NCBI GenBank assembly: GCA_900234795.1
Contig: LT962688.1
Coordinates: forward strand, 2,610,001 to 2,642,000
DNA: 32,000 nucleotides
Reading direction: 5' to 3'
Source of the DNA: Methylorubrum extorquens
GTDB lineage: Bacteria > Pseudomonadota > Alphaproteobacteria > Rhizobiales > Beijerinckiaceae
Shown in pieces: positions 16,474 through 19,141 of this stretch; the stretch's first letter is position 1; the number at the start of each line of letters is the position of its first letter. The notes below the pieces were generated by a model. The model searched no databases and was not told where the DNA came from. It saw only the letters and a program-made list of their open reading frames with translations. The position numbers and the translations under genes are program-made.

Positions 16474-16836
16474 TCAGGTCATGCAGCGGCCGGGCACCAT
16501 GCGGCGCGCCTCCGGCCCGACGAGCGAGCTGAGCGGAGCCTCGCAGCCCTCCCGCGTCAGGCGACGGGGCTTGGCCGGCAACTCTTCCTGAGCGGAGCGG
16601 GTCGGCATCGACTCCGAGCGCGTGGACGGACGGGGCGCCGTCGCCACATGGATCGGGGTCAGAGCGGTGGAATAGGGGCGCATGCCCGGAAGCGGCGTGG
16701 CCGGCGCCTCGTAGGCGACGCGCGGAGCCGTTGGGGCTCCCATCGCATCGGCTTCCTGCCGGACCACCGGCAGAAGCAGCAGGGTCATGATCGCAGCGGG
16801 AACACTCACACCGAGGGCGAAGCCGGTCCGAAGCAT
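16474..16836 (-). CDS. Hypothetical secreted or membrane-anchored protein (120 aa), putative GSR regulon member
   Basis: ATG 16836 is preceded by GGGGAT. The N-terminal hydrophobic segment is GFALGVSVPAAIMTLLLLPVV, the middle is Pro/Thr/Ala-rich, and two C-terminal Cys are present. GC3 is acceptable. A perfect EcfG-type promoter lies 40-65 nt upstream. Confidence 0.55.
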   Translation of the reverse strand: MLRTGFALGVSVPAAIMTLLLLPVVRQEADAMGAPTAPRVAYEAPATPLPGMRPYSTALTPIHVATAPRPSTRSESMPTRSAQEELPAKPRRLTREGCEAPLSSLVGPEARRMVPGRCMT

Positions 16837-16876
16837 CTTTGCGATCCCCGATGGGAGCTTGACAGGTTGTCATCAC

Positions 16877-16902
16877 AACGCTGCTTTCAGATCTTCGGTT
16901 CC
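16877..16902 (-). promoter_or_regulatory. sigma-EcfG-type promoter (GGAAC-N17-CGTT)
   Basis: On the minus strand, GGAAC is at 16902-16898, a 17-nt spacer follows, and CGTT is at 16880-16877. The -10 element is about 40 nt upstream of ATG 16836. Confidence 0.7.
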
Positions 16903-17056
16903 TTCACTGTCCCGCTTCGGATCACATCAGTATTTTCATCTTCATCGGCGCGTCCGCTCCCGCAATGCAGCGGATGCGTGGAGGGAGAGAGCGCCGGAGG
17001 GTCGTGATAAAAAAGCACCTGTGGATGAAAAATCTGCGGGGTCCGGAGCCGAATTC

Positions 17057-17081
17057 GGAACCTGGCGGATGGTCATTAGTT
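17057..17081 (+). promoter_or_regulatory. Near-consensus sigma-EcfG-type promoter (GGAAC-N16-AGTT)
   Basis: GGAAC is at 17057-17061, a 16-nt spacer follows, and AGTT is at 17078-17081, so the GTT core is kept and the C is replaced by A. It points into a non-coding stretch that ends at a strong terminator. Confidence 0.4.
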
Positions 17082-17084
17082 AGA

Positions 17085-17176
17085 GAATCACCCGGCCACT
17101 CTGGTCCTCCCCGCATTCCCCTTGTGCATCGGCCGGAACCTTTTCACGGGTCGGACAATGGTCCGGCCCGTTTTTT
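17085..17176 (+). ncRNA. Candidate ~90-nt sRNA (GsrN-like candidate), GSR-associated
   Basis: It is bounded by the promoter-like motif at 17057-17081 and the intrinsic terminator at 17147-17176. No SD-led ORF is present, since the only long frame runs through the terminator with poor codon usage. It carries C-rich motifs CCTCCCC (17106-17112) and TTCCCCTT (17116-17123). A possible stem CCGGCC (17092-17097) / GGCCGG (17131-17136) encloses them. The 5' end is estimated and not observed. Confidence 0.4.
17147..17176 (+). terminator. Rho-independent terminator (plus strand)
   Basis: CGGGTCGGAC, loop AATG, GTCCGGCCCG: a 10-bp stem with one G-U pair, followed by TTTTTT (17171-17176). Confidence 0.7.
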
Positions 17177-17240
17177 CCTGCGCATTTGCATCGAGCCGGC
17201 TGCCCGTGGGTGATGCTCGCCGCGGCGCTCATCGCGCACG

Positions 17241-17270
17241 AAAAAAGGCGCCAGCCTCTCGGCCGGCGCC
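17241..17270 (-). terminator. Rho-independent terminator of phyR
   Basis: The minus-strand RNA reads GGCGCCGGCC, loop GAGA, GGCUGGCGCC (10-bp stem with one G-U pair), followed by UUUUUU (plus-strand A-run at 17241-17246). It lies 27 nt downstream of the phyR stop. Confidence 0.75.
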
Positions 17271-17296
17271 CTCGGTCACTGTTCTGAAGTTTTAGC

Positions 17297-18100
17297 TCAG
17301 GCGTTATGCGCCTCGCGACGGCGCGCGCTCTGCTGGAAGAACAAAGCCTGGCTGATGACGGCCGACACGTTGGCGGGCTGGAACGGCTTGGCGATGAGGA
17401 AGGCCGGCTCGGGGCGCTCGCCCGTGAGGAAGCGCTCGGGATAGGCCGTGATGAAGATCACCGGCACCTCGAAGGTCTTCAGCAGGTCGTTGACTGCATC
17501 CAGGCCCGACGAGCCGTCGGCGAGCTGAATGTCGGCGAGGATCAGGCCGGGGCGCTTGCTCTCGGAGGCGATCTTGACCGCCTCGGTGCGGGTGCGCGCC
17601 ACGCCGATGACATTGTGGCCGAGGCCTTCGACCAGGGCTTCCAGATCCATGGCGATCAGCGGCTCGTCCTCGATGATGAGGATTTCCGTGGCCATGTCGG
17701 CGGCGAGCTCGCGGCCCGCCTCGTCCACGAGATCGCGCACCTTGGACACGTCTACATCGAGGATCACGCCCGCATCCTCCTCCGAAAAGCCTTCGAGGCA
17801 CGAGAGCAGGAACGCCTGCCGGGGAAGCGGCGTGATCTGGCCGAGCCGGACTTCGGCCGGCAAATCGTGCTGCACCTGATCGCTGTGGCCGTTCACGGAC
17901 AGCGAATTCCAGATCCGCGTGAAGACGCGGAAGAGGTCGGCCTTGACGTTCGTGCTGCGGCCGAGGGTCTCGGGCTCGTTGACCAGCGTCTCGAGGGTGG
18001 CCGCGACATAGGCATCGCCCGCCACCTGACTGCCCGTGAGCGCGCGCGCATAACGGCGCAGATACGGAAGGTGCTGCACGACCAGTTGTGCTGTGGACAT
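17297..18100 (-). CDS. phyR: PhyR anti-anti-sigma factor/response regulator (ECF-sigma-like N-domain plus receiver domain)
   Basis: I take the start at ATG 18100 (MSTAQLVVQHLPYLRRYARALTGSQVAGDAYV), preceded by AGGGGAA. The N-terminus is sigma-like, and the C-terminal receiver contains ILIIEDEPLIAMDLE...LILADIQLADGSSG...ITAYPE. The track ORF running to 18238 is over-extended. Confidence 0.95.
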   Translation of the reverse strand: MSTAQLVVQHLPYLRRYARALTGSQVAGDAYVAATLETLVNEPETLGRSTNVKADLFRVFTRIWNSLSVNGHSDQVQHDLPAEVRLGQITPLPRQAFLLSCLEGFSEEDAGVILDVDVSKVRDLVDEAGRELAADMATEILIIEDEPLIAMDLEALVEGLGHNVIGVARTRTEAVKIASESKRPGLILADIQLADGSSGLDAVNDLLKTFEVPVIFITAYPERFLTGERPEPAFLIAKPFQPANVSAVISQALFFQQSARRREAHNA

Positions 18101-18145
18101 GAGTTCCCCTGAGCCTCTTCGCTCTTCGTTTGTCGCTGCGCCCCT

Positions 18146-18205: not shown

Positions 18206-18279
18206 GCTGCTGCAGCCATGACTCATGTCAAGCTGCAAGACAATCGCGGCAGATGTGGCGCCAAGGGGATCTTGAACGC

Positions 18280-18901: not shown

Positions 18902-18927
18902 GGAACCGACTGGCAAATTCGGCAGTT
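18902..18927 (+). promoter_or_regulatory. Near-consensus sigma-EcfG-type promoter (GGAAC-N17-AGTT)
   Basis: GGAAC is at 18902-18906, a 17-nt spacer follows, and AGTT is at 18924-18927. It is divergent from the DUF1328 promoter and about 68 nt upstream of the 48-aa ORF. Confidence 0.4.
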
Positions 18928-18994: not shown

Positions 18995-19141
18995 GTGCCC
19001 GCACAGAAAAAGACCCTCGTCCCCGGTATCGCTCAAGCGAAAGCCGTTCTGGAGGCCGCTGCACGGCTCGTTTCGGCGCTCTCACCGCAGCCGGTTCTCC
19101 AGCCCATTCCCGTTCGCTTGAAGTCTGTTCACCGCCGCTGA
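18995..19141 (+). CDS. Hypothetical 48-aa protein (GTG start)
   Basis: A strong SD, AAGGAGG (18980-18986), lies 8 nt before GTG 18995. The product is (M)PAQKKTLVPGIAQAKAVLEAAARLVSALSPQPVLQPIPVRLKSVHRR. GC3 is about 66%, below the genome norm. A terminator-like hairpin plus T6 follows. Confidence 0.4.
   Translation: MPAQKKTLVPGIAQAKAVLEAAARLVSALSPQPVLQPIPVRLKSVHRR

Follow-up and report, generated by a model that had tools for sequence, protein, structure and literature searches.

We analyzed a 32,000-nucleotide (nt) stretch of Methylorubrum extorquens DNA (contig LT962688.1, positions 2,610,001 to 2,642,000; hereafter "the window") that includes the general stress response (GSR) locus. There, the order is a DUF2865 gene, a DUF1328 gene, nepR, phyR, a candidate RNA, an open reading frame (ORF) of 120 amino acids (aa), an ORF of 179 aa, and a class-III aminotransferase gene. 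The product of phyR carries the domains PhyR_sigma2, PhyR_sigma-like, and Response_reg; it is 99% identical to PhyR of M. rhodesianum and matches that of M. extorquens AM1, DM4, CM4, and other strains at 100% identity, and the window sequence belongs to the M. extorquens group. Our subject is the 460-nt gap between phyR and the 120-aa ORF (16837–17296), in which an earlier note had seen a candidate EcfG-dependent small RNA (sRNA) with C-rich seeds next to phyR, similar to GsrN of Caulobacter. Our sequence comparisons support this reading, because the predicted unit combines a promoter conserved in register, a non-coding body of ~88 nt, stems with compensatory changes, a fixed site convergent with phyR, and a GsrN-like architecture. 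Overall, we put at about 0.8 the probability that the gap holds an independent non-coding sRNA gene of the alphaproteobacterial GSR.

The elements named in that proposal are all present (Table 1): a promoter-like GGAAC-N16-AGTT, the motifs CCUCCCC and UCCCCUU, and the complementary pairs GCAU/GUGC and CCGGCC/GGCCGG. The terminator is present as well, with a stem slightly longer than the 10 bp initially claimed, i.e., 11 pairs at 17146–17171 (8 G-C, one G-U) followed by T6 at 17172–17177. For 17088–17176, the proposed fold is both the minimum-free-energy and the centroid structure (−37.2 kcal/mol, z = −3.64), and none of 200 dinucleotide shuffles folds as stably. A 6-bp helix (P1) closes a ~33-nt loop displaying both C-rich stretches, UCCUCCCC and UUCCCCUUG, whose unpaired probability is ~0.9 or more except for the last two C of the first motif. 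We set the predicted transcription start (+1) at the ninth nt after the −10 element, as in Caulobacter gsrN (from probe coordinates), and conservation between species begins close to this position, at 17089–17092.

Table 1. Positions of the predicted sRNA, its parts, neighboring elements and candidate targets in the window, followed by related elements in other phyR loci (rows with an L handle, numbered within that locus).
Feature	Position	Strand	Remark
EcfG-type promoter, −35 element GGAAC	17057–17061	+	read from sequence
EcfG-type promoter, −10 element AGTT	17078–17081	+	variant of canonical CGTT; 16-nt spacer after GGAAC
Predicted sRNA transcript, ~88 nt	17090–17177	+	+1 inferred
P1 5' arm CCGGCC	17092–17097	+	pairs with 17131–17136
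Putative C-rich seed 1, CCUCCCC	17106–17112	+	includes anti-Shine-Dalgarno core CCUCC
Inner hairpin P2, GCAU (17113–17116)/GUGC (17124–17127)	17113–17127	+	in minimum-free-energy structure
Putative seed 2, UCCCCUU	17117–17123	+	in P2 loop; loop invariant
P1 3' arm GGCCGG	17131–17136	+	fold and pair counts
Single-stranded linker AACCUUUUC	17137–17145	+	unpaired in fold
Rho-independent terminator	17146–17177	+	11-bp stem, 4-nt loop, T6; terminator scan
phyR terminator hairpin and T6	17243–17275	−	sequence and fold, −28.7 kcal/mol
phyR, 267 aa	17297–18100	−	convergent with sRNA
Candidate target, phyR ribosome-binding region AGGGGAA (−10 to −4)	18104–18110	−	complements seed 2 UUCCCCU
Candidate target, nepR leader CAAGGGGA (−18 to −11 of ATG 18280)	18262–18269	+	complements UCCCCUUG of seed 2
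Type B, L061	7030–7109	−	
Type B, L016	6818–6895	−	
Type B, L014	6865–6940	−	
Type B, L018	6793–6867	−	
Type B, L025	6833–6907	−	
Type B, L021	5802–5878	−	
Type B, L024	4891–4969	−	
Type B, L027	2626–2707	−	
Type B, L019	1939–2016	+	
csbD-like gene, L038	~5540	−	
csbD-like gene, L050	~5150	−	
csbD-like gene, L063	~5547	−	
csbD-like gene, L066	~6288	−	
csbD-like gene, L075	~2221	−	

The unit draws its significance from conservation in relatives, not from its promoter motif alone. BLASTN of 17040–17180 against 80 phyR loci of species-representative genomes, a comparison with relatives that the earlier note had proposed, bore out its reading: the unit was matched in 25 loci, from Methylobacterium, Methylorubrum, Microvirga, and Salinarimonas, with invariant C-rich motifs and compensatory changes in the terminators. 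In all 25 species it follows closely on the phyR stop codon, on the opposite strand from that gene. Alignment extends from 17085–17092 to the end of the terminator and includes a nearly invariant core of ~50 nt, (C)ACCCGGCCACCUGGUCCUCCCCGCAUUCCCCUUGUGCAUYGGCCGGMACCU, while the promoter spacers, the first 7–9 nt after the −10 element, and the terminator stem-loop diverge. A −35 GGAAC stands in register in each of the 25 species and in 10 of 10 M. extorquens-group strains, and a full canonical GGAAC-N16-17-CGTT precedes the core by 7–9 nt in 25 of 25 species. Seed 1 is unchanged in all 26 sequences of this type (type A). The 88 nt of the predicted transcript are 100% identical in ten strains that share the same PhyR, and both flanks carry single-nucleotide polymorphisms.

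A covariance model was built from 26 sequences, i.e., the window and the 25 species, and searched against all loci. It gave the window unit 98.6 bits and the 25 species 69–105 bits, scores that are high by construction as the same sequences built the model; the BLASTN matches to all 25 are evidence independent of it. We then counted base pairs across 47 distinct homologous sequences in a model-fitted alignment, since a MAFFT alignment, which was set aside, misplaced the terminators and the P1 3' arm in two divergent Salinarimonas sequences. Standard pairs filled 98.3% of the cells, against 24–39% with the partners slid by 1–3 columns, a percentage to be read with the model-fitted alignment in mind, which leans towards the structure and inflates the paired fraction. 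Overall, 13 of the 21 pairs had changed on both sides. In the terminator, 10 of 11 pairs showed compensatory changes; in P1, 99.6% of the cells were paired, two of the six pairs went from C-G to U-A, and three had G-U variants. The changes in both the terminator and P1 are visible in the raw sequences too.

The claim that the gap contains no credible ORF also held: only short overlapping ORFs of ≤98 aa are found, and none is conserved, because the flanks are unalignable between species and single-base indels fall inside the unit. If the conservation instead reflected coding constraint, the source would be a small protein, from either an 82-aa ORF (16965–17213) or an 89-aa gene called on the sRNA strand in the AM1 record. 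ORFs of 57–98 aa do exist in the gap, and the AM1 call (L087 2306–2575, minus strand, corresponding to about 17026–17295 on the plus strand of the window) covers sRNA, promoter, and terminator. However, conservation sets in abruptly near the predicted +1 and ends at the terminator, leaving the upstream two-thirds of the ORF unalignable between species; the indels are accompanied by a terminator of variable length; substitutions follow the covariation of paired stems rather than a codon-like pattern; and nine other strains with the same DNA carry no 89-aa gene call. We thus give the coding explanation almost no credence, and the AM1 hypothetical gene is probably spurious.

Beyond these genera, the covariance model returned weaker matches (23–39 bits) in Rhodoplanes, Enterovirga, many Xanthobacteraceae, and two unclassified Rhizobiales, with site and strand relative to phyR unchanged. 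These diverged versions consist of a 6–9-bp stem around CCGGCC/GGCCGG, a C-rich loop (e.g., AUCCUUUCCCCCUCCCCCCGUGCUU), a linker, and a strong terminator, in most cases behind an EcfG-type promoter (GGAAC-N15-17 and, as the −10, CGTT, GGTT, or GCTT). Further variants occur in one Bradyrhizobiaceae genome and one Alsobacter genome. In the more distant phyR loci (L062–L080), no convincing unit was found within the 4-kb flanks. Downstream of phyR, some loci of distant Hyphomicrobiales have a csbD-like gene (MNWDRIEGNWKQFKGKA...) that has an EcfG promoter of its own and, in L050 and L075, comes directly after a C-rich sRNA-like unit.

We also observed a shorter paralogue, type B, of the form AACCGG(C/U)C..UGCCCCC..GG(C/A)C(C/U)GGCACCU plus a terminator. 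It has its own GGAAC-N16-17-CGTT promoter at 8 of 9 loci (L027 has GAAAC). In Microvirga and Salinarimonas it lies ~1–2 kb from phyR; in Enterovirga it occupies the phyR-adjacent site. Neither a second copy of the unit nor type B was found in the window, searched with the covariance model (filters off) and with regular expressions.

The strict conservation of the phyR-convergent position across families is what would be expected of an element acting in cis on phyR, be it as an insulator of convergent transcription, as a bidirectional terminator, or through antisense regulation of the phyR 3' end. In the window, 120 nt separate the sRNA 3' end from the phyR stop codon. However, phyR has a strong terminator of its own, so the two transcripts do not overlap: the ends of the two units are ~66 nt apart. 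In addition, the sRNA hairpin lacks a minus-strand T-tract, an invariant C-rich loop of 33 nt would be superfluous in an insulator, and the type B second copies in Microvirga and Salinarimonas stand ~2 kb away from phyR. A cis-acting role is therefore very unlikely in our estimation, and an independent sRNA gene is the preferred reading.

The wider distribution of EcfG-type promoters in the window is consistent with this reading. Canonical GGAAC-N15-17-CGTT occurs four times (0.47 expected; 0 of 100 shuffles reach four), always in the GSR locus, upstream of phyR, nepR, the DUF1328 gene, and the 120-aa ORF, and this clustering indicates that the motif marks the EcfG regulon here. Both phyR and nepR are autoregulated through EcfG, in agreement with the placement of the motifs. 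The copy at 16877–16902 (minus strand) precedes the 120-aa ORF (16474–16836, minus strand), which has no Pfam family on record, so that the sRNA is flanked on both sides by EcfG-dependent genes. As to the sRNA promoter itself, A-tracts lie upstream of the −35 element (17008–17036, plus strand), namely ATAAAAAAGC at 17008–17017 and GATGAAAAATC at 17024–17034; many relatives, and Caulobacter gsrN too, have comparable A5-7 runs before the −35, and these tracts may form an UP-like element.

A further EcfG-like site, GGAAC-N17-AGTT, was noted at 18902–18927 (plus strand). Four M. extorquens-group strains have AGTT as its −10 element, M. rhodesianum has CGTT, and three further Methylobacterium species have GGTT. 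It is followed by a strong Shine-Dalgarno sequence, GAAGGAGG (18979), and by a GTG-started 48-codon ORF at 18995–19141 (plus strand; VPAQKKTLVPGIAQAKAVLEAAARL...), which is not among the gene calls of ten strains and may encode an unannotated GSR-regulated small protein.

Judging from the promoter conservation, activated PhyR would lead NepR to release sigma-EcfG, which would then transcribe the sRNA gene from GGAAC-N16-(C/A)GTT. Transcription starting near 17090 and stopping at the terminator would yield an RNA of ~88 nt, whose C-rich stretches, by analogy with GsrN and other Hfq-dependent sRNAs, would base-pair as seeds to target mRNAs at G-rich or Shine-Dalgarno regions. Hfq would presumably bind the U-rich linker and the poly-U tail; the linker AACCUUUUC, whose (A/C)ACCU part after P1 is kept in type-A and type-B copies, may be an Hfq or RNase E site. 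Seed pairing would alter the translation or stability of the targets, and the sRNA would thereby add a post-transcriptional arm to the EcfG regulon.

For such seeds, the leaders of nepR and phyR are candidate targets. The stretch UUCCCCUUG of seed 2 is a perfect complement to AGGGGAA of phyR and complements CAAGGGGA of nepR as well. The nepR leader contains a perfect complement of 8–11 nt just upstream of the start in most loci of Methylobacterium and Microvirga. In the Xanthobacteraceae clade, the loop and the ribosome-binding sequences of nepR and phyR both differ and still match each other (ACGGGGGGAAG with CUUCCCCCCGU; GGGGAGGG with CCCUCCCC). The longest complement in the nepR leader averages 8.1 and 7.5 nt within clades versus 6.0–6.6 nt across clades, with per-locus background probabilities of 0.005–0.03, and nepR mRNA was co-purified with Caulobacter GsrN. 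The start of nepR is annotated inconsistently (18253 versus 18280, plus strand; AM1 and DM4 have an 82-aa form and eight further strains a 73-aa form), and CAAGGGGA would be a distant Shine-Dalgarno sequence for the 73-aa form and lies inside codons 4–6 of the 82-aa form. The ribosome-binding region of the 120-aa ORF, CGGGGAU, is a partial complement to seed 2 over 6 nt.

These matches suggest a more specific idea, namely that the unit represents a separate, deeply conserved sRNA family of Hyphomicrobiales rather than a diverged GsrN, with seeds pairing to the ribosome-binding regions of nepR and phyR. If so, the pairing would close a post-transcriptional feedback loop on the PhyR–NepR–EcfG partner switch. 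Three considerations weigh against such feedback: Shine-Dalgarno regions are G-rich anyway, 2 of 20 crude windows resembling translation-initiation regions already match over ≥7 nt, and the duplex energies of the two leaders do not stand out. We hold this idea as tentative and somewhat doubtful.

The RNA might also work other than by mRNA seed pairing, i.e., as a sponge or through a protein that it binds or titrates. The loop sequence, which hardly varies and exceeds a typical seed in length, would fit this, as would the absence of a convincing mRNA target in the duplex-energy scan of the window. However, the C-rich loops of GsrN pair with G-rich mRNA sites (PMC5869019), the loop here varies in sequence by clade and keeps its C-rich character, and its complementarity to the ribosome-binding regions of nepR and phyR is clade-matched. 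We therefore see a protein-binding or sponge function as quite unlikely, and seed pairing as the preferred mode of action.

Besides the lean of the model-fitted alignment towards the structure, several points weigh against an EcfG-dependent, GsrN-like sRNA. First, taken by itself, the promoter-like motif carries no significance within one 32-kb window: 0.13 occurrences of GGAAC-N16-AGTT are expected per window, and 13 of 100 shuffles had it. Second, we infer the expression of the sRNA, its 5' end, and its dependence on EcfG. Third, the earlier note had placed seed 2 in a small loop closed by GCAU/GUGC, as does the minimum-free-energy fold, yet P2 shows no informative covariation among the 47 sequences: the helix is invariant in type A and absent in Salinarimonas and the distant clades, and covariation neither supports nor refutes it. 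Fourth, duplex energies over all 30-nt windows of the 32-kb window gave nothing above the GC-rich background, and the phyR and nepR leaders fell at the 20–27% quantile and were no outliers. Fifth, the Rfam check that the earlier note had suggested found no family matching the unit: Rfam 15 at gathering thresholds gave zero matches in the whole window. A permissive scan of 16800–17320 (E up to 10) gave only noise (≤18.4 bits), including MH_s10 (18.3 bits against a threshold of 81), ncS54, and SorY, and 12 related loci likewise had zero Rfam matches. Sixth, similarity to the GsrN sequence is at background level: the local alignment scores 13, shuffles average 15.5 ± 2.3 and 928 of 1000 of them reach or exceed 13, and the family alignment has an E-value of 0.22 against gsrN in nhmmer. 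Finally, the −10 element is CGTT in 25 of 25 species and in 9 of the 10 strains with identical PhyR, and the window has AGTT, shared by only one of these ten (L083, CP021054.1).

As CGTT is near-universal in strains and species, AGTT is best read as a recent C-to-A change at a normally invariant position, and this allele may be expressed at a lower level. In a stronger version, the allele would be promoter-down or decaying: the change would largely abolish recognition by EcfG, and the RNA would barely be made in the strain of the window and work in its sister strains. The distribution of C and A among relatives would fit such decay. However, the transcribed 88 nt are free of mutations, GGTT and GCTT occur naturally as −10 variants of the orthologous Rhodoplanes and Xanthobacteraceae promoters, and the alternation of AGTT, CGTT, and GGTT by species at the 18902 site suggests that NGTT is tolerated. 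Overall, we judge a decaying allele unlikely and keep to a functional sRNA gene.

Methylobacterium is a model system for the GSR, and PhyR was discovered there. A small RNA, as yet unidentified, has been proposed for the PhyR/EcfG-dependent control of EcfG3 at the protein level (Francez-Charlot et al. 2016, PMC4814048), and an sRNA gene adjacent to phyR would be an obvious candidate. The alignment and the covariance model define an RNA family spanning at least Methylobacterium, Methylorubrum, Microvirga, Salinarimonas, Rhodoplanes, and Xanthobacteraceae. For annotation, the locus merits a non-coding RNA label in place of the hypothetical ORF of AM1.

The unit would belong to a known class, the EcfG-driven sRNAs linked to the GSR locus; it is undescribed for this lineage and absent from Rfam, and it is not a new kind of element. 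Several published candidates were considered and rejected. On the AM1 chromosome the sRNA locus lies near 3.25 Mb, whereas Met2624 maps at 2.13 Mb and lacks an intrinsic terminator, and Met1153, sRNA1969, and the rest of the 22 probed M. extorquens candidates lie elsewhere. A later preprint on an M. extorquens sRNA pipeline makes no mention of phyR, EcfG, or GsrN. Bradyrhizobium BjsR1-10 and the Sphingopyxis SuhB sRNA are neither at phyR nor EcfG-driven. The alpha-r14/CcsR "cuckoo" sRNAs, which are stress-linked and C-/U-rich, with anti-Shine-Dalgarno-like CCUCCUCCC loops and an Hfq-type 3' module, resemble the unit in displaying C-/U-rich anti-Shine-Dalgarno-like motifs in loops. The motif here differs (CCUCCCC/UCCCCUU), and the unit is single-copy in the window and tied to phyR.

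A closer parallel is ReC64 of Rhizobium etli, an 88-nt RNA downstream of phyR-tcrY (Vercruysse 2010, PMC2881028; Jans 2013, PMC3892343). It is part of the conserved ecfG1-phyR region, and its EcfG1 promoter was validated by Northern blot, 5' rapid amplification of cDNA ends, reporter fusions, mutants, and heterologous expression (PMC3892343). Drawn with a 5'-terminal stem, an unpaired loop, and a small hairpin, it is counted among the putative GsrN homologues of Rhizobiaceae (PMC5869019). Compared by description rather than by sequence, the two share an intergenic site at the GSR locus, a near-consensus EcfG site, and a length of 88 nt, predicted in our case. ReC64 lies after tcrY and not directly after phyR, and its expression and EcfG dependence are experimentally validated whereas here they are predicted.

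In C. crescentus, GsrN (CCNA_R0081) is sigma-T-dependent and has a C-rich 5' loop (Tien et al. 2018, PMC5869019), and its BLAST-detectable homologues are confined to Caulobacteraceae, usually beside ecfG/nepR/phyR, in agreement with the earlier note. From position and an EcfG site, "GsrN-like" genes have also been predicted in Rhizobiaceae, R. palustris, and B. diazoefficiens (PMC5869019). Our Xanthobacteraceae-clade loci (core GACCGGCCAUCCUUUCCCCCUCCCCCCGUGCUUGGCCGG) are probably the GsrN-like genes of Figure 9 in Tien et al. 2018; the Methylobacterium form differs from these in its loop sequence and lies outside that survey. For the comparison with GsrN itself, the gsrN gene block was recovered from the eLife supplement of Tien et al. 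Of the label "GsrN-like," promoter type, architecture, and position stand and sequence homology to Caulobacter GsrN was not detectable, so that we regard the predicted sRNA as GsrN-like in function and architecture and not as a demonstrated member of the GsrN sequence family. GsrN is also longer (~106–112 nt versus ~88 nt), has a P1 of 12 bp rather than 6 bp, and has a single C6 run where the unit has two C-rich motifs, including the anti-Shine-Dalgarno-like CCUCC. Further traits of GsrN are endonucleolytic cleavage to a stable 5' isoform, stabilization by Hfq, and activation of katG with protection against peroxide and osmotic stress; the katG leader lies outside the window. The likenesses are nonetheless extensive: the gsrN block has GGAAC-N16-CGTT with +1 ~9 nt after the −10, the same geometry as here; in both, a 5' stem starts at or near +1 and carries a loop that is C-rich and unpaired on the 5' side and bears a small hairpin on the 3' side, followed by a single-stranded linker and an intrinsic terminator; the C-rich loop is the most conserved part, and here it is invariant across 26 sequences; and homologues typically adjoin ecfG/nepR/phyR. 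Tien et al. proposed that Alphaproteobacteria generally have EcfG-dependent sRNAs next to the GSR locus, and our comparisons, taken together, lend support to this.

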